The notes under the pieces are model-generated. The model was given only the letters and a program-made list of their open reading frames with translations. It was not told the origin of the DNA and did not search any database. The position numbers and the translations under genes are program-made. Of a stretch of 64,000 nucleotides of DNA, positions 112 to 16,914 are shown in pieces. The stretch comes from an uncultured Bacilli bacterium (GTDB lineage Bacteria; Bacillota_I; Bacilli_A; RF39; UBA660): contig CAKOXO010000002.1 in the NCBI GenBank assembly GCA_934130165.1, positions 261,632-325,631 on the forward strand, read 5' to 3'. How positions within the stretch are numbered: the first letter of the stretch is position 1; every line of letters begins with the position of its first letter.

Positions 112-960
112 ATGATATTATATAAAAACACTTTTGATAATATTAAAACTGTTGGATATAATGTTCCAATTGAGGATAGTTACTACTGTAAAAATAATTT
201 TGCTGTTGTTGCTGATGGTATAACTAGGGATCCAAATGGTATAAAATATTTTGATTCTACCTCATTTGAAGAAAAAATTAATAATTATCCTAACCCAAGC
301 GGTGCTAGTATGGCAGCAAATTTAATTTGTAAAACATTTGAAGAAAACTATAACGGTATTATTAGCAAAAAGCTATCACTAAAGGAAGCTTTTATAAAGG
401 CTAATAAAGAAGTTAAAAAATTAAATAACGCACACATTAAAGTATGTGATTATTTAGAAAGTGATTATTATGGAGCAGTTGGTGCTTCTGCACTAATTGA
501 AAATAACAACTTATATTACAGTTATATTTGTGATTGTGGAGTTGCAGTTTTTGATAAGAATGGAAAGTTAGCATTCAAAACTGAAGATGATATGGAAAAA
601 GTTAACAAACACTTTGATACTGGCTCCTTTAATTGGAATCAACCTGAAGCTAGAATAATTGTTAGAAAAGACTACCGTAATAATCCAAATAATAAATATT
701 CATATGGAGCAATAACTGGTGAAAGAGAATTTGAGCATTATCTAAAGGAAGGTTCTTTAAAATTAAATGATAATGACATAGTTATAGTATATAGTGATGG
801 TTTTGCTAATTACTTGTTTGATAAAGATTTTTATAATAATTTAATAAATCTAATCAATAAAGATTACTCTACTTTTCAAAACTATTTAGAAAAAATGGGT
901 AGTAAAGATTACAGAAAATACGGAAAAGAAAAAACATTGGTGGTGATTAAAAATGGATGA
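112..960 (+). CDS. PP2C-family (PP2C_2/SpoIIE-like) protein phosphatase-like protein
   Basis: 282-aa ORF with RBS AGTGGTGA upstream. Motifs AVVADGITRD and VIVYSDGFANYL resemble the metal-binding Asp motifs of PP2C-like phosphatases. The canonical DGMGG is absent. Confidence 0.5.
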   Translation: MILYKNTFDNIKTVGYNVPIEDSYYCKNNFAVVADGITRDPNGIKYFDSTSFEEKINNYPNPSGASMAANLICKTFEENYNGIISKKLSLKEAFIKANKEVKKLNNAHIKVCDYLESDYYGAVGASALIENNNLYYSYICDCGVAVFDKNGKLAFKTEDDMEKVNKHFDTGSFNWNQPEARIIVRKDYRNNPNNKYSYGAITGEREFEHYLKEGSLKLNDNDIVIVYSDGFANYLFDKDFYNNLINLINKDYSTFQNYLEKMGSKDYRKYGKEKTLVVIKNG

Positions 961-1897
961 TTTGATTTCTAAAATAAGTTTTTTCAGTGATAAAGCAATA
1001 TTTGAAACAATTAGTGATAGTAATTCTGGCGCTATATTAAAAAAAGTTAAAGATAAAAATGATACTTACTTTTTAAAAATAGTTCAAAATAACAGTGTAG
1101 ATATTAATAGAATCCAAAAGATAATAGAAATTTATGATAAATATGATATAAATACCATTAAATTATTAGATTATGGATATATAGATAATAAAGTATATTT
1201 AATTTATAATTTTATTGATGGCTTTGCATTAAATACAGTTTATGATAAATATGATGTTAACGACTACAGTAATATGGGATTTAATATAGGATCCAGCTAT
1301 AAAAAAATCAATTTCAAACATGAATTTGATAATGACTTTGTAAACAATTATGATTTAAATACTTTGGTGAATGAATGTATAAATTCATTTAAAAATGTAT
1401 ATAATGGGAAATTATCATATATAAAAAATATAATTAATGAAAAAAGAATGACGAATATTATTAATAGAATGAAAGAGCTTACTTCTTCATTCAATAATGA
1501 AAAAAAAGCCTATATTCATGCTGATATGCATCCTAAAAATATCATGATTGATAATAATCAAAATTTATATATAATTGATATTGAGTCATTTTGCATTGAC
1601 TATTTTGTAATGAATGTAAGATGGTCTATAATAGCAGCTTTTAGAAATAAGGAGAATAACGAATTTTTCAAAGGTTTTATTAATGGTTATTATGATAATA
1701 ACATCCCAGATAGTTTTAACAAGCAATTAATATTTATTACAATATTTAATTTTTTAGAACATACTATTGAATTTAGTAAAACTAAAGAGAAAGAATTCAT
1801 CATTGACTATATCTCTAAAATAAATCTTCTATTTAATAGTGTAGACTTATTTAGTGACAATAACATTTTAGATAATACAACAATCTTTAATAAATAA
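953..1897 (+). CDS. Kinase-fold phosphotransferase (APH/choline-kinase family)
   Basis: 314 aa. Catalytic loop YIHADMHPKNIMID followed by LYIIDIESF (HxDxxxxN ... D motif of the aminoglycoside/small-molecule phosphotransferase family). Its ATG overlaps the upstream stop (ATGGATGA). Confidence 0.65.
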   Translation: MDDLISKISFFSDKAIFETISDSNSGAILKKVKDKNDTYFLKIVQNNSVDINRIQKIIEIYDKYDINTIKLLDYGYIDNKVYLIYNFIDGFALNTVYDKYDVNDYSNMGFNIGSSYKKINFKHEFDNDFVNNYDLNTLVNECINSFKNVYNGKLSYIKNIINEKRMTNIINRMKELTSSFNNEKKAYIHADMHPKNIMIDNNQNLYIIDIESFCIDYFVMNVRWSIIAAFRNKENNEFFKGFINGYYDNNIPDSFNKQLIFITIFNFLEHTIEFSKTKEKEFIIDYISKINLLFNSVDLFSDNNILDNTTIFNK

Positions 1898-1970
1898 GAA
1901 ATATATATAATCTGAATTCCTTGTTCTATATTATTTTATAACTATGATATAATTGTATCAGGTGATTATT

Positions 1971-2768
1971 TTGAATATTTATAAATGTTTAAATGAAATA
2001 ACAAAATATATAGATGATAACTTAGAAAATAAAATAGATTATGATGTTCTGGCAAAAATCATGGGAGTAAATTCATATACAATGCACAGAATATTTTCAT
2101 TAATATTTGGTATTTCCTTAGCTGAATATATAAGAAAAAGAAGATTATCAAATGCAGGTTATGACTTATATGAAACAAATGCTAAGGTTATGGATATTGC
2201 AATTAAATATCAATACGATAATGCTACATCTTTTTCAAGAGCATTTGAAAATTTTCATAATATTAAACCTAGTCAAGTAAATAAAATATCAAAACTTAAA
2301 AGTTTTCCTAGAATTATACTTAATGAAGAAATAACAGTAACTAATGAAATTGAATATAAAATAATAAAAAAAGATGAATTGATTTTGTATGGATTAGGTA
2401 TTAAAACTAATAATGAAAATATTGGTATAGATGCACCCAATTTCTTTAAAGATATAGAATTTAAAAATAAAGAAAAATATGGAAAAATAAAATTTGGTAT
2501 GATTACTTATGATGATGAATTAAGAGAAACTTGTAATGGCTATTATATTCTCTATGATAAAAAAATTGATAGATTAGAAAAGATAGTAATACCCAAAAGC
2601 AAATGGCTTGTATTTAGAATTAATTCTCAAAATCCTAAAGATATACAAGAAATGTCTCATAAATTTTATTTGGAATTTCTACCATCCTGTAAATATAATT
2701 TAAAAGAAATTCCTGAATTAGAATATTATCATGATGGAATAACTGATTTTTTAGTACCTATATATTAA
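1971..2768 (+). CDS. AraC-family transcriptional regulator with GyrI-like effector domain
   Basis: HTH signature YDNATSFSRAFENFHNIKPSQV and RKRRLSNAGYDL, with a C-terminal ~150-aa GyrI-like region. The ORF track opens at TTG 1953. TTG 1971 lies 6 nt after CAGGTGA and is the likelier start. Confidence 0.8.
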   Translation: MNIYKCLNEITKYIDDNLENKIDYDVLAKIMGVNSYTMHRIFSLIFGISLAEYIRKRRLSNAGYDLYETNAKVMDIAIKYQYDNATSFSRAFENFHNIKPSQVNKISKLKSFPRIILNEEITVTNEIEYKIIKKDELILYGLGIKTNNENIGIDAPNFFKDIEFKNKEKYGKIKFGMITYDDELRETCNGYYILYDKKIDRLEKIVIPKSKWLVFRINSQNPKDIQEMSHKFYLEFLPSCKYNLKEIPELEYYHDGITDFLVPIY

Positions 2769-2806
2769 ACTGACAAATTTGGTAAACTAAAAGTCAGTTT
2801 TTTATT
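2768..2806 (+). terminator. Putative rho-independent terminator after the AraC gene
   Basis: AACTGAC (2768-2774) pairs with GTCAGTT (2793-2799) and is followed by a T-run. The loop is long (18 nt). Confidence 0.45.
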
Positions 2807-2844
2807 TTCGTTTTTTGATACAATTCTATTAGAGGTGACTGATT

Positions 2845-4701
2845 ATGGGATTAACATCAGAAATTTACCTTACCAAGAAACATATATCAAAAGATGAATG
2901 GCTAGAATTAATAAGGGTTATATCAAATTATAATGGATTATTTAAAAAATGGAAAATAATTATTAAAAATGATAAAAATCAAATAAGATATTTTGTAAAA
3001 ACAAAATGTAGTTTACCTTCTACAATTAATAGTTTAAGTTCTTTTTTATTAAAGTCTGTAAATGATATTAACCTACCCAATCCTAATATTAATTTACCTT
3101 TTATAATAAAACTTGGAAGTAACATTGTTGATATAATAAACTATATAGAGATTAAAAATAAAGGAAAGTTAAAATTTTTAGAAATAACTTTTCAAAAATT
3201 ATATGAAAACAAAATAAAATCAAATACAAGATTTTATCTAAATAAAAATGGAATTATTAAAAGATATAAAGCTATATTTTGCTTACCTACCGATATTTTA
3301 TCTGTAAATTTTGATTGTAATAGAAGGTATTTTTATAAAAATGCACCAAAGTATTTAGATATTAATAAAATTTTACACTTATTAAATACAGATTCAAATT
3401 CTTCCATATTGAAGATTGATACTTTTCCTTATTTGCAGGGAGATTTTTACTTAAATCAAAATAGTTATAATTTTGACAAACACTCCATTGTGTTGGGGTC
3501 CAGTGGATGTGGAAAATCTAAATTCATAAGTCTACTTATAAAAAATATTTATAAAAATAACACTTTAAAACAGAAATATAAAATTGTTGTAGTTGATCCA
3601 CATGCATCTTTAGAAAATGATATTGGTGGTATAAGTAAAGTCATCGATTTTAAAAACACATTAGATAGTATAGATTTATTTATCAATAATAGTGATGATG
3701 TTATTTCTTCAACTGAACTATTATTAGAACTTTTAAAATCTTTAATTGCCGATCAATATAATTCTAAACTTGAAAGAGTTTTAAGACATAGTATTCATAT
3801 ATTACTTACAAATGAATCATTTAATTTTAGAAATTTAAGAAAATTATTACTTGATTTGGAATATAGAAATTCATTAATAAAAGAACTTAAATATAAATTA
3901 CCTATTAGTGTTATAGATTTCTTTTTATCAGATTTTAACGATTTAAAAACCAAATCTTATGGAGAATCTATTTCACCAATTATAGCATTTATTGATGAGA
4001 TGGAAATGCTCCCTGTATTTAACGAACAAAAAACTAAAGAGAATTTAAAAGATACCATTTATAATAATTTTCTAACTTTATTTTCTTTAGATAGAACAAA
4101 ACTAGGAGATAAAGTTACTAAAACTATTTCTGGATTAGTAATGCAACAACTATTAACTATAATTGAAAGACGAGAAATAAATGAACACATTATATTTATA
4201 GTGGATGAAGTTGCTGTTATAGAAAATCCCATTTTATCAAGATTCCTATCTGAAGCTAGGAAATACAATTTGTCATTAATTTTGGCAGGTCAATATTTTA
4301 ACCAAATTTCTGAAAATCTAAAAAATTCTATTTTTGCTAATGTAGTTAACTATTACATATTTAGAGTATCTAAATTAGATGCTAATGTATTAGTAGATAA
4401 TTTTAATATGAAAATACCACTAGATAATACAAGAGAAAGAAAAATAAAAGTTTTAACTGAATTAAATAATCGGGAATGTATTGTTAGAATTGATTCAAAT
4501 GGAATATTACTACCTGCATTTAAAGCAACAACCTTGAATTATATTAGTGTTCCTAGAATTAAAAATAATACTCAAACAAAAATAACTAATAATAATACTC
4601 CAATTTTATTTAAAGAAAATAGTAAATTTAAAATAGGAAATAATATAAATTTAAAAGACATATTAATATCTAATTCATCAAGTAGAAAGGTTGTGAAATA
4701 A
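2845..4701 (+). CDS. HerA/FtsK/TraG-superfamily P-loop ATPase (DUF87-like) with an unrecognised ~215-aa N-terminal region
   Basis: 618 aa, RBS AGAGGTGA. Walker A is LGSSGCGKSKF, then VVVDPHASLEN (DPHGEY-type motif), Walker B IIFIVDEVAVIE, and ARKYNLSLILAGQYFNQIS (RK[FY]G..hh..Q motif). No transmembrane segment. Confidence 0.7.
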   Translation: MGLTSEIYLTKKHISKDEWLELIRVISNYNGLFKKWKIIIKNDKNQIRYFVKTKCSLPSTINSLSSFLLKSVNDINLPNPNINLPFIIKLGSNIVDIINYIEIKNKGKLKFLEITFQKLYENKIKSNTRFYLNKNGIIKRYKAIFCLPTDILSVNFDCNRRYFYKNAPKYLDINKILHLLNTDSNSSILKIDTFPYLQGDFYLNQNSYNFDKHSIVLGSSGCGKSKFISLLIKNIYKNNTLKQKYKIVVVDPHASLENDIGGISKVIDFKNTLDSIDLFINNSDDVISSTELLLELLKSLIADQYNSKLERVLRHSIHILLTNESFNFRNLRKLLLDLEYRNSLIKELKYKLPISVIDFFLSDFNDLKTKSYGESISPIIAFIDEMEMLPVFNEQKTKENLKDTIYNNFLTLFSLDRTKLGDKVTKTISGLVMQQLLTIIERREINEHIIFIVDEVAVIENPILSRFLSEARKYNLSLILAGQYFNQISENLKNSIFANVVNYYIFRVSKLDANVLVDNFNMKIPLDNTRERKIKVLTELNNRECIVRIDSNGILLPAFKATTLNYISVPRIKNNTQTKITNNNTPILFKENSKFKIGNNINLKDILISNSSSRKVVK

Positions 4702-5400
4702 ATGAATGATAATATTGCCTTAGAAATTGTTGATAAAATATTCAGTGATGTTTTTAATAGAAATAATAAATATTCATTAAGTGAATTGTTAGAAACATTT
4801 GCTTTTGATATAAAACTGCCAAAACAGGTTAATGATTCAACAACTAATGAAGTAACATGGGCAGATTCAATTAATAGTGGTAAATTTATTACTAATGCCA
4901 ATATGACAAAAAGAGATTCAACAATTGGTTGGATGTTATCTAAAAAGAAATTTAACAGTCTACAAGAATTAGTAGAAATTTGGAATTCTATAAATCTAAC
5001 CACAACAGAAAGGGTTTATGATTCTATTAATACAGTTAAAAGTGATACTATTTATAGATGCGAAAACGTTTATAGGTGTACAGGTTGTAGTGATTCAAAA
5101 AATATCATATATTGTGATTCTTGTGGAAATTGTGAATATATATTAGGATCACAAAGATCTGTGAATTGTAATTTCTGTATAAGAACCGATGATTCTAAAA
5201 ATTGCAGTAATAGTTACAATATAATTTGTTCCAATAAAGTTGGCAATTGTTTATTTATACAGGATTGTTTTAACTTATATGAATGTATGTTTTGTTCTCA
5301 TATTGCTAACAAAAGATTTTGTATAGCTAATATGCAATTTGAAGAAGAAGAATATTATGAAATTAAAAAAGCAATTATTGATTGGATTTTAAACTCCTAA
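4702..5400 (+). CDS. Cysteine-rich repeat protein of unknown function
   Basis: 232 aa. The ATG directly abuts the TAA of the ATPase gene (4699-4704 TAAATG). There are 15 Cys in the last ~95 aa, in 8-10-residue quasi-repeats (YRCENVYRCTGCSDSKNIIYCDSCGNCEY...NCNFC...KNCSNSYNIIC...), ending FCIANMQFEEEEYYEIKK. Confidence 0.6.
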   Translation: MNDNIALEIVDKIFSDVFNRNNKYSLSELLETFAFDIKLPKQVNDSTTNEVTWADSINSGKFITNANMTKRDSTIGWMLSKKKFNSLQELVEIWNSINLTTTERVYDSINTVKSDTIYRCENVYRCTGCSDSKNIIYCDSCGNCEYILGSQRSVNCNFCIRTDDSKNCSNSYNIICSNKVGNCLFIQDCFNLYECMFCSHIANKRFCIANMQFEEEEYYEIKKAIIDWILNS

Positions 5401-6293: not shown

Positions 6294-7163
6294 TTACTTT
6301 ATCAAATAATCAATAAATTTATTACAACTATTACTCAATATATTGTTTTTCAAAGTAATAATCCCATAAGAAATTTTAGGTGTTTCTGGAATTGTTTTTA
6401 TAATAAATAAACTTTTATTTTTTAATTCCTTTTCAATATATAGTTTAGTTATATATCCTACTCCATATCCTATTTTAGTAAAATCTGTAAGTAAAGATGA
6501 ACTTCCAATATTTAATTTAGAATCTATTTCTATATTATTTTCTTTAAACAATTTCTTTGAACTAAAATAAGAATTTGATGGTTCCCTTTGAAGTAATATA
6601 GGATAATTTATTAAATCACATAATTTAATAGGTTGTTTAATTCTATTATATAAATCTTTATTAGCAACAAATTCGTATGAAGACTCACCCATTTTAATAA
6701 AATTTAAGTCTTTATCCAAAGTAGTTGGTAATTTACAAACAACTAAATCAAGTAGTCCATTTTGTAAAAGTTTAATATTATCTTTAGTTGTATTGGTACT
6801 AATCTCAATTTTTACATTAGGATATTTTTTATAAAAAGTATTTATATAATCCATTAATATTCTTACTAAACTAGTGCTTATTCCAATTCTAATTATTCCA
6901 CAGTCATTATCATTATAATTTTTTATTTCATTTTCCACATTATTAAAAATAGTTAATGCATTTTTTATTTCTAAAAATATTTTTTGTCCTATTGGTGTTA
7001 ATATTACTCCTTTTCTTGTTCTATTAAACAAAATTACGCCTAATGATTCTTCAAGATTTTTAATATGTTTTGTTATAGCTGGTTGTGATATATTTAACTC
7101 CTTACTAGCTTTTGTTATATTTTGATTAACCGCTACAATATAAAAGATTCTATATAATTCCAT
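6294..7163 (-). CDS. LysR-family transcriptional regulator
   Basis: HTH region NITKASKELNISQPAITKHIKNLEESLGVILFNR plus a C-terminal substrate-binding domain. The ORF opens at TTG 7184. The ATG at 7163 gives the typical MELYRIFY N-terminus. Confidence 0.85.
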   Translation of the reverse strand: MELYRIFYIVAVNQNITKASKELNISQPAITKHIKNLEESLGVILFNRTRKGVILTPIGQKIFLEIKNALTIFNNVENEIKNYNDNDCGIIRIGISTSLVRILMDYINTFYKKYPNVKIEISTNTTKDNIKLLQNGLLDLVVCKLPTTLDKDLNFIKMGESSYEFVANKDLYNRIKQPIKLCDLINYPILLQREPSNSYFSSKKLFKENNIEIDSKLNIGSSSLLTDFTKIGYGVGYITKLYIEKELKNKSLFIIKTIPETPKISYGIITLKNNILSNSCNKFIDYLIK

Positions 7164-7196
7164 ATTTATCACTTTCATCACCAAATTTATTATATC

Positions 7197-7211
7197 ATAA
7201 CTAAAAGTTAT
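7197..7211. promoter_or_regulatory. Candidate LysR box (ATAAC-N5-GTTAT, a T-N11-A type site)
   Basis: Dyad ATAACTAAAAGTTAT in the divergent intergenic region between the LysR gene and the HD hydrolase gene. Confidence 0.35.
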
Positions 7212-7281
7212 TGCATATATACACTATTTGTATTTTTAATTATTATAATTTTATTATATATTGGCATTGGAGGTAGGGAAT

Positions 7282-8103
7282 ATGGAAAAAGAAAGAAGAA
7301 AATATTTATTAAATAAAGGAGATAAAAATAAACACTCATATTTGATTATTATTGTTGATAATAGTGAAATAATACCAAATCAAATAACAAGGTATGTCAA
7401 TAGAGATGAAGATATAGGCGATATACTGTTTCAATATGCATGTAATCCCAATTTAAAAATATCTAATATATATAATTACGATATGGAGTTAGATGCTCAA
7501 ATCAATGAAAGCAATCCCTATCACGTAATAGCACCATACAATAAAATGGAAGAAGCATATAATTTTGCAAAACAAAAACATGAAGGACAAATTAGAAAAG
7601 ATGGTAGTGCATACATTAATCACCCTAAAAAAGTTGCCGAAATTGTTAAAAAGTATTTTTCATATCACTCTAGAGTTAACGAACTTATAACTGCTGCTTA
7701 TTTGCATGATGTCGTTGAGGATACTGATACTACTATAGAAGAAATTAGAGAAAAATTTGGAGAATATGTAGCTTATTTAGTTAATGGAGTTACAAATAAT
7801 GACATACAAAAAAAGAGGATGGGCAAAACTAATTATTTATGCAATAAAATGTTACATATGGATGAAGATGTTCTAAATTTAAAATTATGTGATAGATTAT
7901 CTAACACTTTAGATTTATGTAATGCAAATAAGGATTTTGCTGAAAAATATGAAACAGAAACCACAATTATTTTAAATTATTTATTAACTAATAAAAAGCT
8001 AACCAGTAGTCAAAGAGAACTTACAAAAAGGATAAATTCTGAAATTAATAATTTAAGACAACAAAATATTCTGCAATTAACTAGAAATCAAAAACATTCA
8101 TAA
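7282..8103 (+). CDS. RelA/SpoT-type HD-domain hydrolase (stand-alone small alarmone hydrolase-like) with N-terminal extension
   Basis: HEGQIRKDGSAYINHPKKVAEIV ... AAYLHDVVEDTDTTIEEI matches the (p)ppGpp hydrolase HD domain. No synthetase domain. GGAGGTAGGG RBS precedes the ATG at 7282 (the ORF track starts at TTG 7261). Confidence 0.7.
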   Translation: MEKERRKYLLNKGDKNKHSYLIIIVDNSEIIPNQITRYVNRDEDIGDILFQYACNPNLKISNIYNYDMELDAQINESNPYHVIAPYNKMEEAYNFAKQKHEGQIRKDGSAYINHPKKVAEIVKKYFSYHSRVNELITAAYLHDVVEDTDTTIEEIREKFGEYVAYLVNGVTNNDIQKKRMGKTNYLCNKMLHMDEDVLNLKLCDRLSNTLDLCNANKDFAEKYETETTIILNYLLTNKKLTSSQRELTKRINSEINNLRQQNILQLTRNQKHS

Positions 8104-8109
8104 AAAAAA

Positions 8110-8137
8110 CTTCCATATTTATGGAAGTGATTTTTTA
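8110..8137. terminator. Bidirectional rho-independent terminator
   Basis: CTTCCATA/TATGGAAG hairpin (8110-8127) flanked by an A-run upstream and a T-run downstream. It sits between convergent genes. Confidence 0.7.
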
Positions 8138-8152
8138 TTTTTAAAAAGAAGA

Positions 8153-9067
8153 TTAATTTTTATAATTTAATAACTCTAGTTTCAATTTATCATATGCTTT
8201 AGTTTCTAATTTTGATTTTTTCTTTAATTTTTCAAATTCATTATTCAAGAGTATAAATTCCTCTTTTGCACTCATTGCATGATCTGATATACATATTTTA
8301 CCTATAAAGTTAGAAAACATAAATCTATAAATAAATGCACATAAATTTTTCCTATTAACACAGTTTTCATATTCACCTTTAGGAAGTATTTCATAACCTA
8401 ATTTTTTAAGAACATCATATCCTTCAATAATTGCATCCATAATCAATAAAGAGTATTCTTTATCCTTTTTTAGTAATTTTAAATTTCCATTTAATTTATA
8501 ACTTGCAAACACAAGTGGAAGAACAGCACAAGCATGTGTTTTAAGATAATCATTCATCCTATTTTCTATAGTTACTTTTATTTTTGTTTTTCTAAATATG
8601 GATTTTATAAATTCATCACTTATATTCTTTCCATCTACTCTCCCAATTTCAATTTTATTTAAACAAATTGAATTGATATATCCATCACATTTCTTACCAG
8701 CTGCCATAAAGAATGCAAATAATACATTTTTATTTTTAATATCCATATATTTTTCTACAGACATATTATTACCTACAAATACTATATTTCTACTTTTATT
8801 GTTTTCTATAATTGGAACAATACTGTCTAAAGATGAAAATCTAGAAACTATGAATATTACGTCATAAATATCATTTTTATCTAACTTTTCTATTACATTG
8901 AAATGATCTATAGTTTTTTTACCTAGTTTATGTTTTATAATAAGTCCATTACTTTTCAAATTCTCTTAAGTTTTATTTTTAGCCAAAATAGTTACATCGT
9001 TTCCCTTTTTTATAGAATGCGCCAGATTTGATCCAAGTACACCAGCACCAATAATTAATACTTTCAT
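8153..9067 (-). pseudogene. Ketopantoate reductase (ApbA/PanE)-like NAD(P)-dependent oxidoreductase interrupted by an in-frame TAA
   Basis: ATG at 9067 encodes MKVLIIGAGVLGSNLAHSIKKGNDVTILAKNKT (GxGxxG Rossmann start). TAA follows at 8966-8968. The same frame then continues as ENLKSNGLIIKHK... into ORF 8153-8959. Confidence 0.65.
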
Positions 9068-9266
9068 TTTAAAACAATCCCTTTCTGTAATACATTTTCA
9101 CATATATTATTTAATAATTAAAATTAATCTTCTATATATACCACCATAATTATACTATTTTTCTTTAATATTTTCCATATTTCACTATTTTTTATACATA
9201 ATTGTAATTAATAATCTTAATATAATACAAAAAAAGAAGATTTAAGTAATAATACTTTAAATCATT

Positions 9267-10760
9267 CTATTTTTTTGGATCTTTTTTTGTAAACACCTTA
9301 GATTCGTTGTCAGGATCTACATCAGATACAGATTTAATTATTGGTGAAGTAGCATTTTCTATTTGACTTTGTAAAATATCTAAATAATCAGAAACAACAT
9401 CCCTGTTTTTAATTAACTCCCCTTTAGAAAGTTTTTCTAATTTTTGTTTACGTTGTGAATCTTCCATTCCCTTTTGATTAAATAAGTAATAACTAATTTG
9501 ATAGTATACATTATTGCCAATTTCATTCATGTTTAATTTTGAAATATACTCCATGTCATAATCATGATCATCTTTATCAATACTCAACTTGTCAGTTGCT
9601 TTTCTTACTAATAATTTAGATATATCTTCCTCCTGTGCCTTACTTATAATAACTGCATCTTTTTTATGATGAATACTACTTGATGAGCTTTCATCCATCA
9701 TGTACATACATAAATTTGCAAAAGTAGATTCATTATCTACATTTTGTAATAATTCTAAATCAAAATTTTTATATTGACTGTTTATAAAATTTAGATTTAG
9801 TAATAAAATAGCAAAGTTCACAACATATTTATCATCCATTTTACTTATTCTAACTAAATTATTTAAATAATCTGGATCAGTCTTACCAGATACGCAATTA
9901 TCAACACTTATAGGATATGCTACATTTGATATTTTTCTATCTGGATTGGCAATATAATAATATAATGCTCTACATGTTTCTATACTTTTGGCATTCATTA
10001 ATACATCTACTTCTCTACGATAGTTTTCTCCTTCAATAATATCTGGATCAGTCATAACTGCACACAAGTAAGATCCAAATTCAGGTTTTGTTGATAGTAT
10101 TTTCATATTTTCTAAATGATATTTATCTGCTAATGATACCTCGTTTGTAGCCAAATAATTAAGACCAGCATTCCAACAAGAGAAAAGTGGTTCTAAACAA
10201 CTACTACCTGCTGTTGCTATCATTTTAATATCCGCTTGATGATATGGACTTTTAATGGAAGCAGCACTACTAGCAACCATTGCAATAGCATCCTTTACCA
10301 TAAAGTCTAAAGGTTTTTCTTTTTCTGTATCATGTGCTTCAACAAGTAATTTTAAATCTTCTTCATGATAAGGGCTATTTATAAAATCCTTTGATCCTAA
10401 TACCCAAAGACCGTTACTATTATTAGTTTTACTTAGTATTTCTATATCTCTATAAAAATTATCACTTTTTAAGAAGTTAGGATTATATACGTCGTAAAAA
10501 GTATAACAATCACTTTTTAATTTTGTCATTGCAGTAATCCTTTGGTTATAATCATCACAATCTAATAAATCAGTATTAACTAATAAATTTTTAAATCTTT
10601 TTATTTTTTTTGGATCTATATTCAAACTAAGAAAACTATTTATTTGAGTACTATCTAACTCTGAAACCCATTTTTTAAATCCTTCTACATCAACAAATGA
10701 ATCAGTTAATTCATATTTTTTTATTTGCTCAATTACTTTTTTTAATGTTTCATTTTTCAC
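9267..10760 (-). CDS. Hypothetical repeat protein (~9 copies of an unrecognised helical repeat)
   Basis: 497 aa, GTG start 7 nt after GGGAGG. Recurrent motif such as FINSPYHEEDLKLL, IKSPYHQADIKMI, LADKYHLENMKIL, EGENYRREVDVLM, INSQYKNFDLELL. No TM segment and no signal peptide. Confidence 0.6.
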   Translation of the reverse strand: MKNETLKKVIEQIKKYELTDSFVDVEGFKKWVSELDSTQINSFLSLNIDPKKIKRFKNLLVNTDLLDCDDYNQRITAMTKLKSDCYTFYDVYNPNFLKSDNFYRDIEILSKTNNSNGLWVLGSKDFINSPYHEEDLKLLVEAHDTEKEKPLDFMVKDAIAMVASSAASIKSPYHQADIKMIATAGSSCLEPLFSCWNAGLNYLATNEVSLADKYHLENMKILSTKPEFGSYLCAVMTDPDIIEGENYRREVDVLMNAKSIETCRALYYYIANPDRKISNVAYPISVDNCVSGKTDPDYLNNLVRISKMDDKYVVNFAILLLNLNFINSQYKNFDLELLQNVDNESTFANLCMYMMDESSSSSIHHKKDAVIISKAQEEDISKLLVRKATDKLSIDKDDHDYDMEYISKLNMNEIGNNVYYQISYYLFNQKGMEDSQRKQKLEKLSKGELIKNRDVVSDYLDILQSQIENATSPIIKSVSDVDPDNESKVFTKKDPKK

Positions 10761-14336: not shown

Positions 14337-16049
14337 TTAATCTTCTGTTACTAATTGCTTATAAATTTTATTATTTTTTATTAAATCATCATTATTTCCA
14401 ATACATTCTACTTTACCATTATTTAAAACAATCAATTTATCTGCCCTACGCATTAAATCTTTGTTATGGGTAATAACAATAATTGTATGATCAGTTTTCA
14501 AATCATCTAAAAGATTTATAATTTTATCAGTTGTATTTGGATCTAATGAGGAGGTCACCTCATCTAAAAGTATTATTTCAGAAGATGTAAGAAGTGCTCT
14601 AGCCAATGATAAAAGTTGTTTTTGGCCACCACTAATATTAGTTGCATCTTCTTTCAAAATAGTACTATAACCATCAGGTAGGGACATTATAAAATCATGT
14701 ATTCCAACTCTTTTACAAGCATCAATTTGTCTTTTCTTATTTGAATCAATTAGTGATAAATTAGCTCTTATACTCATATTAAAAATAAATGTCTTTTGAT
14801 TTACAATACTAACATTTGAATTAAATACATCTCTAGAATAATCATAAATATTTATCCTATCTATCAAGATTTTACCATCATTTACTCTATACATTCTTAA
14901 AAGAAGGTTAAATAATGTTGTTTTTCCTGATCCAGTTTTACCAACAATTGCAGTTATTTGATTTGGTTTTGCAGTAAAAGATACATTTTTTAACACTTGA
15001 AGTCTACTGTATTTAAAAGATACATTTTTAAATTCAACATAACCAGCAATATCATCATTATTAACTATACCATCTAATACTAAATTACTGTCTTTATAAT
15101 TAACTATTTGATTTATCCTATATAATGAAACTGATTCTTCCATAATAGATACATCAAACTCCATTATGTCATTTATAGATTCTTTTGTTTTATCATAATA
15201 TGAAATTAATAATAAAAACATAGCAATTTGTATTTTTCCTTTAATAAGAAGAACTAACACAATAAAATATAAAATTATTTTACCAAAATCAATTACTAAA
15301 CCTACCAAAGTTTTTCTCGTAAAATAATATTTTCTTTTAAGAAAGTAATTTTCTTGCCATCTTTTCCTATATGTATCTAATTTATTATTTAATCTACTTC
15401 CAATATTAAAACTTTTAATATCTTTAAGTCCTATCAAAATTTGAGATAACATCCCTACCATTTTATCAGCATATTTTATTTGTTTTTTTAAATAATGAGC
15501 GTTTTTATCATTACATTTTCTTGCATAGATATAATATATAGCATCTATTATAATTACATATATTGCCACTAAAACACTTTGCTTAGCAAACACAAAATAT
15601 ATAACTAACAATTTAATAAATTCAATTAATAGTTCAATCATAAAAGAAGGTACTTCTGCAATATTAATGATATCTGAATTTGAGGAGTTTATAATTTTTC
15701 CAATAGACATTTTTTCTGAATACTCGTAATCGAAATCATATACACTATTTACTAATTTCTGATGTACTGAAACATAGGTTTCTTTAAAAAAATTAGCATA
15801 ACACCAATTAGTACAATAAGAACCAATTTTATTTAATAAATAAGTTATTCCCAAAGCAACAATTAAAACAATTGCTACATTATAGAGTTTATTTGTTACA
15901 ACCTCAACAATTAATGATATAAGAAAAGGTATCAATAAACTTATTAAAACATTTATTAAATCGATAATTATAAAAGTTATCAAGTACTTATTTTTAAAAC
16001 TAACCAAAGAAAAATAATCCTTTGCAATTTTAATATTTTTTTTAATCAT
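14337..16049 (-). CDS. ABC exporter, fused permease/ATPase (MsbA/type-I exporter family)
   Basis: N-terminal six-helix TMD. Walker A GKTGSGKTTL, signature ISGGQKQLLSLARAL, Walker B ILLDEVTSSLD. The ATG at 16049 follows GGTGAG (the ORF opens at TTG 16061). Confidence 0.9.
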   Translation of the reverse strand: MIKKNIKIAKDYFSLVSFKNKYLITFIIIDLINVLISLLIPFLISLIVEVVTNKLYNVAIVLIVALGITYLLNKIGSYCTNWCYANFFKETYVSVHQKLVNSVYDFDYEYSEKMSIGKIINSSNSDIINIAEVPSFMIELLIEFIKLLVIYFVFAKQSVLVAIYVIIIDAIYYIYARKCNDKNAHYLKKQIKYADKMVGMLSQILIGLKDIKSFNIGSRLNNKLDTYRKRWQENYFLKRKYYFTRKTLVGLVIDFGKIILYFIVLVLLIKGKIQIAMFLLLISYYDKTKESINDIMEFDVSIMEESVSLYRINQIVNYKDSNLVLDGIVNNDDIAGYVEFKNVSFKYSRLQVLKNVSFTAKPNQITAIVGKTGSGKTTLFNLLLRMYRVNDGKILIDRINIYDYSRDVFNSNVSIVNQKTFIFNMSIRANLSLIDSNKKRQIDACKRVGIHDFIMSLPDGYSTILKEDATNISGGQKQLLSLARALLTSSEIILLDEVTSSLDPNTTDKIINLLDDLKTDHTIIVITHNKDLMRRADKLIVLNNGKVECIGNNDDLIKNNKIYKQLVTED

Positions 16050-16122
16050 ACATCTCACCAATGTAATTGTAAATTAATTTTTAGTATATTTCTTTACATT
16101 TTAAATATTAAATTTGTTAAGA

Positions 16123-16914
16123 TTATTTTATAGGCAAATATATATAACAATACTCATCTTTATATAATTCAATTTTAAGATCATTTTTAACACTATAATT
16201 TGTTGAAGGTATCCATTGTGAATCTATTTTTTTCTCAAAGTCAGCTATTTTTTCTTGTTGTCTTGATGAAAACTTAAAAGCAACATATTCATTTTCCTTA
16301 ATTTCATATTTTTCTAAATCCGAAAAATATTTTGAAGATCCTAAATAATAATGGTATAAGCCTTCATCTTTAAAAAATATTCCATACATTCCTGATTCAC
16401 TAAACTCTTTATAATGACCATTATCTTTTGCTTTTATATATAATTGTTTAATTTTATACAATAAATCAGAATGTTTTTTTGAAGTAATATGATAACAGTA
16501 TAAAAAAGTATTAGGAATTTTTCTTACTTCATAATCAAAGTTATATTTTTCATTATTAGTTTCAAAGTATTCTATAGGTATTATTTTATAACTACCTATA
16601 CCCTTTCTACATTCAGTAGGCGTTATACCGAATAATTTTTTAAATGCTCTATTAAAGGATACAGCTGAATTATATTGATATTTAAAAGCAATATCAATTA
16701 TTTTACAATCGGTATTTCTAATTTCTTCAAATGCTTTACTTAATCTTCTTTTCTTTATATATTCGTTAATTGTCATATTAGTTAAAAACATAAAAATACG
16801 TTCAAGAATAAATAAATTGGTATTAGTTATTTTACTTAATGTATCTAAATTAATTTGACAATCAAGATTATTTTCTATATATTTAATCATTTTATTTAAG
16901 CAATCAAAATTCAT
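16123..16914 (-). CDS. AraC-family transcriptional regulator with GyrI-like effector domain (paralog of 1971-2768)
   Basis: YNSAVSFNRAFKKLFGITPTECRK HTH. Same domain architecture and similar length to the first AraC gene. Confidence 0.8.
   Translation of the reverse strand: MNFDCLNKMIKYIENNLDCQINLDTLSKITNTNLFILERIFMFLTNMTINEYIKKRRLSKAFEEIRNTDCKIIDIAFKYQYNSAVSFNRAFKKLFGITPTECRKGIGSYKIIPIEYFETNNEKYNFDYEVRKIPNTFLYCYHITSKKHSDLLYKIKQLYIKAKDNGHYKEFSESGMYGIFFKDEGLYHYYLGSSKYFSDLEKYEIKENEYVAFKFSSRQQEKIADFEKKIDSQWIPSTNYSVKNDLKIELYKDEYCYIYLPIK

Follow-up and report, generated by a model that had tools for sequence, protein, structure and literature searches.

Pairing a HerA-type ATPase with a dedicated partner protein is a recurring design, employed in DNA repair by HerA-NurA and in immunity by SIR2-HerA and HerA-DUF4297. 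We describe here a two-gene cassette which resembles these systems in its ATPase and differs from them in its partner. It lies near one end of a 64-kb stretch of DNA from an uncultured RF39-lineage Bacilli bacterium (contig CAKOXO010000002.1; the whole stretch of 64,000 nucleotides that was analysed is called the window, and positions refer to it). A gene for a soluble P-loop ATPase of the FtsK-HerA superfamily (2845..4701, plus strand, 618 residues) is followed by a gene for a small protein, hereafter the partner (4702..5400, plus strand, 232 residues). The stop codon of the first (TAA, 4699-4701) directly abuts the start codon of the second (ATG, 4702), a translationally coupled arrangement, and both reading frames stand exactly as given in a preliminary description made from the sequence alone. 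The cassette is present as a single copy in the window and its GC content shows no anomaly (22.7% vs 25.2% for the window). What is known is the HerA-type motor-plus-partner design; what appears to be new, judged from sequence comparison, is the partner family, its predicted fold, its distribution across two domains of life and an associated regulator and palindrome. No description of the pair was found in the literature on HerA or DUF87 proteins of Saccharibacteria, Patescibacteria and DPANN, or on HerA effectors.

The locus shares with HerA-NurA an FtsK-HerA ATPase encoded beside an obligate partner, a chromosomal location with vertical inheritance, and an ATPase fold that matches PDB entry 9x1l. 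NurA binds its hexamer as a dimer, and here fused or duplicated partner modules hint at a dimer too. However, the partner has no NurA domain, RNase-H-like nuclease signature or conserved acidic residues, the ATPases are only ~14% identical, and no Mre11 or Rad50 genes lie nearby. SIR2-HerA (Nezha) and HerA-DUF4297 offer the best fold matches to the ATPase. Both have a two-gene operon, as here, and a soluble ATPase whose partner-binding domain is likewise N-terminal, but the partner in the present pair is not SIR2, nor is it DUF4297/Cap4. The anti-phage HerA model NF042943 scores the ATPase at 19.4 bits (cutoff, 800), over residues 211-251 alone, and the pair differs from these systems in evolving slowly and in lacking a defence-island or mobile-element distribution.

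As we best read the data, the pair forms a module of the chromosome that descends largely vertically and is kept under strong purifying selection. More specifically, and with a probability of roughly 0.45, we propose that the two proteins form an obligate and regulated motor-plus-adaptor complex which is inherited vertically and acts on DNA or nucleoprotein, as opposed to a mobile anti-phage cassette. The ATPase would be a soluble, NTP-driven translocase, probably hexameric by analogy with its relatives. The partner would be non-enzymatic, comprising an alpha/beta domain, a beta-solenoid built on a ladder of Ser and Cys residues and a C-terminal helix, such that an adaptor or structural module may take the place of the nuclease or NADase of HerA-NurA, SIR2-HerA and HerA-DUF4297.

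Linkage of the two genes in Bacteria and Archaea

Relatives of the small protein are encoded in 390 of 185,579 species genomes, as found with a peptide pattern drawn from its F-C207-I-A-N210-M-Q212 stretch. Species-level locus counts given below refer to the best 80 of these 390 genomes, in which the partner is 69-85% identical to the window protein and whose labels include uncultured gut Bacilli, metagenome-assembled genomes assigned to "Tenericutes" or Erysipelotrichaceae, Ca. Coprovivens and Ca. Ventrenecus. In 79 of these 80 genomes the small gene is immediately preceded by the ATPase gene, at a distance of -20 to +5 nt, and the lone exception is a contig edge. A metagenomic scan seeded with distant partner members yielded another 80 loci with GC contents of 23-56%; the ATPase is upstream in 73 of them, a contig edge cuts six others, and only the last, L130, clearly departs from the pattern. 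Linkage persists at large divergence: upstream of both P0300 (25% identical to the partner) and the archaeal P0258 there is an ATPase C-terminus which is 38% identical to that of the window. The divergences of the two proteins are tightly correlated in a mirror-tree comparison (r = 0.95, 116 pairs). An uncharacterised ATPase-plus-partner pair, as first proposed for this DNA, is therefore borne out by adjacency across Bacteria and Archaea, by co-evolution and by the lack of known relatives of the partner. Co-occurrence is general and extends well beyond close relatives, and the partner does not occur as a housekeeping protein on its own. On this basis, and by analogy with the HerA systems, we infer that the ATPase and the partner form a physical complex.

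Some loci carry more than one partner module. Tandem copies of the small gene follow a single ATPase gene in the Saccharibacteria-type loci L112 (1599-3007) and L145. Among archaeal loci, L176 (2545-7351) encodes the ATPase, then a 525-residue protein of two fused modules and two single-module paralogues, while L177 (2259-5445) has two double-module proteins in tandem. This duplication and fusion of modules suggests that the partner is a dimer or oligomer, and in that form it would probably dock on the ATPase ring. A double-module protein is also found at the archaeal locus L088 (4127-5737), with no ATPase within 4 kb and followed by an NTase/HEPN pair. A 530-residue protein near the pair in L172 was checked and is not a double-module relative.

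The pair can thus be regarded as a functionally constrained module that is strictly linked across two domains of life, and it occurs where little dispensable DNA is kept, namely in Saccharibacteria, uncultured gut Bacilli and Archaea. Once solved, its role would define a new class of partner for HerA/VirB4/VirD4 motors and allow more than 1000 hypothetical proteins to be annotated.

Genomic setting and the question of defence

The matches to the ATPase profile include proteins named by NCBI as Candidatus Saccharimonadales or Saccharibacteria, on contigs of up to 1.26 Mb. On an 821-kb Saccharibacteria contig the pair is found among genes for transketolase, FBP aldolase, SLOG, UvrB, GatCAB and the alpha subunit of DNA polymerase III, and the order uvrB ... 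pair ... gatC-gatA-gatB is repeated in loci L112, L124, L135, L152 and L154. The archaeal neighbours are eIF-6, L39e, S19e and prefoldin (L173), KH_PNO1 (L176), and aEF-1beta and aS21 (L177). The ATPase clades track both GC content and taxon, which indicates mainly vertical descent. These housekeeping contexts in Saccharibacteria and Archaea, together with a regulator and a palindrome that accompany the pair in the lineage of the window, do not fit the earlier framing of the locus as part of an accessory stretch.

The pair also evolves slowly. Across the same pairs of gut Bacilli genomes the partner has a mean identity of 79%, above 25 of 26 neighbouring gene families, and the ATPase 67%. Conservation of the partner equals that of pyruvate-phosphate dikinase (PPDK; 85.1% vs 82.8%) and exceeds that of thymidine kinase, Ham1 and NUDIX proteins. 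Searches with tblastn found no partner in 50,697 phage records (INPHARED) or 72,556 plasmids (PLSDB), and a scan of IMG/VR likewise found no relative of it; for the ATPase, phages gave nothing and plasmids gave three remote matches (22-27% identity). Among 147 flanking proteins, PADLOC revealed no recurrent defence neighbour, its matches being scattered singletons together with three mad3 and three mad8 hits, both of which are generic ATPase-type models. Pfam assigns the flanking proteins to NUDIX, ABC transporter, regulator, UDG, CTP synthase and Ham1 families. The hallmarks of a mobile defence-island gene (carriage by phages or plasmids, recurrent defence neighbours and rapid evolution) are not observed here, and neither the role in defence that the preliminary description implied nor its view of the partner as a candidate effector finds backing in these data. 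On balance we favour the view that the pair resembles a regulated cellular machine more than a mobile anti-phage cassette.

Several observations weigh against our reading. No direct feature points to the substrate, be it DNA, protein or other. The small-protein homologue at L130 (6539-7327) has no upstream ATPase and follows two ABC-transporter-like genes. In Southlakia epibionticum the pair is absent from the interval between uvrB and gatC and there is no matching entry in the annotation table, which means that the pair is not universal even among Saccharibacteria. In gut Bacilli the flanks beyond the regulator-pair cassette vary among species and even strains, and genes for serine recombinases or relaxases stand beside the cassette in ~10% of the Bacilli-clade loci. 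These are large serine recombinases and MobA/VirD2 or Mob_Pre relaxases, found to either side at distances of a few kb (L011:1772-5149; L014:1475-5143; L010:10857-12002; L034:3014-4717; L004:1-1678), with a relaxase within 5 kb in ~4-5 of 86 loci; the flanks of the cassette in gut Bacilli are an insertion-prone region. Finally, it is defence HerAs that the ATPase most resembles in structure, and the flanking proteins do include a few matches to defence models (a restriction endonuclease, DrmC, PDC-S04 and AriA).

The last of these points, together with the variable flanks and their mobile genes, speaks for an alternative in which the pair defends the cell against phages or plasmids as a new system of the HerA type. 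In it, the ATPase would sense or thread invading DNA, the solenoid would act as a novel effector or sensor, and the AraC-type gene found upstream would be an addition of one lineage. The compact two-gene operon layout is in keeping with such a role, as are the PADLOC results for the ATPase itself, for which the best profile is mad8 (PDLC04140; 1.8e-16, core residues 211-509) and several HerA models match weakly. The mad8 hit covers the P-loop core alone, however, and what is conserved is the pair, either by itself or together with the regulator, without the other genes of the MADS system (mad1-mad8). A defence role is also hard to reconcile with a partner that has no PADLOC match and no conserved catalytic constellation, with the negative phage, plasmid and IMG/VR searches, and with the lack of a recurring defence neighbour. 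Stable uvrB-gatCAB synteny in Saccharimonadales, ATPase clades that follow taxonomy, and, in contrast to arms-race genes, a degree of conservation at or above the level of central metabolic enzymes argue in the same direction. We consider a defence function possible but doubtful.

The ATPase and its partner

The Walker A, DPH-type and Walker B motifs claimed for the ATPase are all present and conserved in its family. In the Walker A motif G218-S-S-G-C-G-K224-S225 (3496..3519, plus strand), residues G218, G221, G223 and K224 are invariant across 35 diverse sequences. The Walker B motif IIFIVD454-E455 and an arginine-finger-type motif E470-A-R472-K473 (together 4189..4263, plus strand) contain the invariant residues D454, E455, E470, R472 and K473, and the D251-P252-H253 motif is also invariant (alignments of 34-35 diverse homologues). 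As had been noted, the protein has no transmembrane (TM) helix (maximum Kyte-Doolittle mean over 19 residues, 1.34); the partner is likewise without a TM-like segment (0.93). In an AlphaFold2 model of the ATPase with a mean predicted local distance difference test score (pLDDT) of 77.8, a mixed alpha/beta N-terminal domain (residues 1-~205) precedes a RecA-like core, which holds a large helical insert (residues ~286-407). A disordered linker (residues 574-600) then leads to a short predicted helix (603-610) within a conserved C-terminal tail, INLKDILISNSSSRKVVK (residues ~601-618; 4645..4698, plus strand; family consensus NL-DLLA-QSSSRKKV). The tail is kept in most clades behind a variable low-complexity linker; it is absent from a subclade of short ATPases (~560 residues), the partners of which are slightly longer. 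It could contact the partner, a membrane or DNA. In the complex that we propose, the docking surface for partner dimers would be the N-terminal domain, this tail, or both.

Profile searches place the core in the FtsK-HerA superfamily and leave the N-terminus apart. Pfam finds DUF87 (32.1 bits vs a cutoff of 23.2, E = 1.6e-7), TrwB_AAD_bind (PF10412; 23.1 bits vs a cutoff of 20.5, 4e-5, a marginal match over 88 residues) and, under its cutoff of 22, TraG-D_C (PF12696; 20.4 bits, 5e-4), and PF10412 is precomputed on most members of the ATPase family. No Pfam family matches the N-terminal ~205-215 residues, the region in which the HerA of HerA-NurA carries a HAS-barrel domain, and NCBIfam matches are at the level of the Walker A motif only. 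The name 'nicotinamide riboside kinase' that JGI gives to family members P0412 and P0429 is probably an annotation error inherited from a Walker A match. In a Foldseek search of the PDB the anti-phage HerAs of SIR2-HerA and HerA-DUF4297 come first (8xaw, 8uae, 8sub, 8j4u and 8ziq; E = 1e-10 to 1e-7), followed by VirB4 (TM-score 0.65 on the target), Cag-beta, TdpA and DotL, with FtsK weaker. The Foldseek probability is 1.00 for HerA, VirB4, Cag-beta and DotL, and the HerA alignments run the full length of the ATPase at a global TM-score of only ~0.35. The ATPase is a member of the FtsK-HerA superfamily in its HerA/VirB4/VirD4 branch and, because all structural matches are only 9-16% identical to it, lies outside every solved subfamily. 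It does not fall firmly inside a clade of type IV coupling proteins (T4CPs) or VirB4, a placement that would have told against the preliminary description.

A resemblance to T4CPs (TrwB/VirD4, Cag-beta-CagZ, DotL) and VirB4 is nevertheless seen in the TrwB_AAD_bind and TraG-D_C signals, in the helical insert of the NTPase core and in the fold matches to 8dol, 6sz9 and 4ag5, where the TM-score of 0.65 is on the C-terminal domain of VirB4. The pair might accordingly comprise an orphan T4CP-like or DNA-transfer/uptake ATPase with its adaptor or chaperone, working for an apparatus of secretion, of competence or of a conjugation-like process whose genes lie elsewhere. Besides the above-cutoff TrwB_AAD_bind match, the occurrence of PF10412 on most family members and the resemblance to Cag-beta (8dol) and DotL (6sz9), this would suit the conserved tail behind its flexible linker, an arrangement similar to that of T4CP tails. 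In support, the Saccharibacteria type IV secretion system (T4SS) cluster has been reported to be without a recognisable coupling protein (PMC10633639). We nonetheless judge it improbable. The ATPase has no N-terminal membrane anchor and the sequence of its 205-residue N-terminal domain matches nothing in Pfam, linkage to T4SS or relaxase genes is not general, and T4SS, relaxase and pilus genes do not adjoin the pair in most loci. Furthermore, S. epibionticum encodes T4CP-like proteins (SEML1_0142 and SEML1_0293) apparently without the pair, and the low-GC bacterial locus L111 holds a separate, TM-anchored paralogue beside it. The two S. epibionticum proteins were examined as candidate relatives and set aside: they are different, longer and without a partner. 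Since the uvrB-gatC interval of this organism lacks the pair, its transposon-sequencing fitness data have no bearing on it. The L111 paralogue (6981-9314, 777 residues, E = 2e-17) has an N-terminal TM anchor, is T4CP-like and sits 2.6 kb downstream of the pair, such that soluble and membrane-anchored forms of the ATPase coexist.

The partner family is large (400 clusters at 50% identity in an exhaustive search) and has no match among solved folds. Neither Pfam, NCBIfam nor PADLOC contains a family that matches the protein, and single-sequence and profile searches of PDB sequences gave nothing significant; PHROGs returned a weak match to phrog_15341 (3e-7), a family of unknown function. A 46-residue Sir2 match of the partner profile against the PDB (E = 0.3) was dismissed as chance. 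The AlphaFold2 model (pLDDT 76; predicted TM-score 0.82) consists of an N-terminal alpha/beta part (residues 1-~100), a series of very short strands (~100-212) and a C-terminal helix (215-231). Foldseek found no match to this model in the PDB at E <= 10, and matches in BFVD were of the Cys-composition type with TM-scores below 0.2 and were not considered meaningful. The structural comparison advised at the outset therefore leaves the partner without a match among solved folds and the ATPase remotely HerA/VirB4/VirD4-like.

The most conspicuous feature of the partner is its Ser/Cys ladder. There are 15 Cys residues, the number first reported, all between residues 120 and 207 (88 residues). The quasi-repeats described for this region are real, beyond chance, but their period is not 8-10 residues: the autocorrelation of Ser and Cys over residues 100-212 is 0.41 at lag 6, 0.50 at lag 12 and 0.39 at lag 18, i.e. 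a period of 6 with harmonics, and the lag-6 value was reached by none of 5000 shuffles. Small-residue ladders of this general kind are known from insect Cys/Thr-ladder antifreeze beta-helices, hexapeptide LbetaH proteins and the pentapeptide-repeat protein MfpA, which works with the NTPase MfpB. The partner resembles these in having Ser or Cys every six residues, in being mostly acidic and in being encoded alongside an NTPase. It differs in having no Pfam Hexapep or Pentapeptide match, no beta-helix among Foldseek results, and a period of 6, not 5, so these solenoids serve as leads only.

Conservation was assessed in an alignment of 32 members at 24-58% identity. Residues M1, C207 and N210 are invariant, and the wider conserved set comprises L39, P40, S114, S120, R161, F197, C198, C207, I208, N210, Q212 and Y218. 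The strongest motif of the family is F-C207-I-A-N210-M-Q212 (5317..5337, plus strand), in which I208 and Q212 are conserved in at least 90%. Cysteine richness is by comparison specific to the lineage of the window: C207 is conserved in 100% and C198 in 94% of members, the remaining 13 positions are Ser or other residues in most relatives, and relatives contain 4-13 Cys vs 15 in the window protein. The alignment contains no conserved acidic, His or multi-Cys constellation. Since the conserved residues form no catalytic or metal-ligand set, we read the partner as a structural or adaptor protein, and since 13 of the 15 Cys positions are unconserved, a metal cluster is unlikely. On these sequence grounds we assign the partner to a new family of probable structural or adaptor proteins without a metal cluster.

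The cysteine-cluster protein implied by the first description, i.e. a Zn- or Fe-S-binding redox or metal sensor, can be weighed on the same alignment. It would account for 15 Cys in 88 residues and for the rise in Cys along the last positions of the ladder across the family (position 189, 56%; 195, 78%; 198, 94%; 207, 100%). However, a canonical Zn or Fe-S site needs more than two conserved Cys, relatives manage with as few as four, and no metal-binding family was matched in Pfam, NCBIfam or PDB profile searches; we regard this explanation as extremely improbable. Very improbable, too, is a self-assembling scaffold or filament, bactofilin-like in principle, which the ATPase would build up, remodel or travel along. 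The slow evolution of the partner over its whole length, its lack of catalytic residues, its regular repeat architecture and the tandem paralogues and head-to-tail fused double modules would all suit a scaffold of this kind. Against it, polymerisation rests on no direct sign, the model has capping elements at both its N- and C-terminus, and Foldseek shows no likeness to bactofilin or any solved beta-helix in the PDB.

Within the motor-plus-adaptor complex that we prefer, the partner may serve as a clamp, adaptor, mimic or scaffold on DNA or nucleoprotein, DNA being the presumed substrate. Mimicry of DNA is kept as speculation only. Most members are acidic (isoelectric point ~5), but three of the 32 are basic (~9), and these argue against conserved DNA mimicry by the partner.

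Regulation and neighbouring genes

Immediately upstream of the pair, on the same strand, is a gene for an AraC-family regulator with GyrI-like/Cass2 domains (1953..2768; Pfam HTH_18, HTH_AraC, GyrI-like and Cass2, as read on the identical gene in loci L001-L006), the start annotated in relatives corresponding to ~1971. Initially treated as a mere accessory neighbour, it is a conserved part of the cassette in the low-GC gut Bacilli clade: an AraC/GyrI-like gene lies directly upstream and on the same strand in ~68 of the 80 species loci, and the same arrangement recurs in three deep clades (L119, L138 and L143). Between regulator and ATPase there is a palindrome, ACTGAC-N18-GTCAGT, followed by a T-run (2769..2809, plus strand). 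There is one copy of it in the window. Of 72 upstream regions, 61 contain it at a distance of 43-49 nt from the ATPase ATG, and the spacer is always 18 nt long. The palindrome accompanies an adjacent AraC-type gene in 54 of 57 cases, and is present in 2 of 8 cases without one.

The palindrome forms the hairpin (2769-2798, then the T-run) that was originally noted as a terminator preceding the cassette. Its predicted RNA fold has an energy of -11.4 kcal/mol (z = -3.5), and a strict terminator scan passes over it, its G-C pairs being too few for the criterion applied. Across loci L007-L086 and the window the element is conserved in sequence, without covariation, and encloses a loop of about AAAAYTGATTRYTAAAAA; Rfam has no match to it. 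The element probably serves the regulator gene as intrinsic terminator and may also be the operator of the regulator. Further downstream are a promoter-like extended -10 box, TG-n-TACAAT (2816-2824, plus strand), and a putative ribosome-binding site, AGAGGTGA (2831-2838, plus strand), in agreement with the initial claim that the cassette has its own; TGnTATACT and GAGGTGA are kept at matching positions in related loci. In the lineage of the window a ligand-sensing AraC/GyrI-like activator would control the pair through this palindrome and promoter. In two archaeal loci, double Lrp/AsnC-type helix-turn-helix regulators are encoded divergently from the ATPase (L109:4690-5694 and L176:1279-2307, both minus strand). 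The two are homologous although the loci are distant (26% identity, E = 2e-33), and a divergent regulator of this type may play the corresponding part in Archaea. The presence of small-molecule-type regulators in two domains suggests that expression of the pair is controlled and probably inducible, and we infer inducibility on this basis. The conserved regulator and palindrome would also provide an experimental handle, via the inducing ligand.

The uvrB neighbour in Saccharibacteria and the GyrI-like domain in Bacilli give weak hints of a connection with DNA damage or xenobiotic stress. A bolder proposal, unlikely in its full form, is that the pair is an ancient machine of Bacteria and Archaea in which a HerA-like motor and a solenoid, acting as DNA mimic, clamp or scaffold, remodel DNA or nucleoprotein upon a small-molecule signal. 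The signal would be sensed by the AraC/GyrI-like regulator in Bacilli or the Lrp/AsnC-type regulator in Archaea, and the machine might, for example, help the cell to tolerate xenobiotics that damage DNA or poison topoisomerases. Such a machine might be favoured in small-genome lineages that depend on a host or partner (Saccharibacteria, other members of the candidate phyla radiation, some Archaea and RF39-like gut Bacilli).

A PP2C-like phosphatase (112-960) and an APH-like kinase (953-1897), which overlap by 8 nt, are indeed present as reported, but this pair of genes (112..1897) is conserved within the species alone; its restriction to same-species contigs (L001-L006) places it outside the system. 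A second AraC/GyrI-like paralogue, related to the cassette regulator at E = 4e-30, adjoins an ABC exporter-type gene on the minus strand (14337-16061 and 16123-16914), and these genes look like a separate xenobiotic-response unit. No tRNA genes, and no Rfam families at the gathering threshold, were found in the 64-kb window. A 497-residue open reading frame with a GTG start occupies 9267-10760 on the minus strand, and from 19 kb onward nearly all open reading frames lie on that strand.

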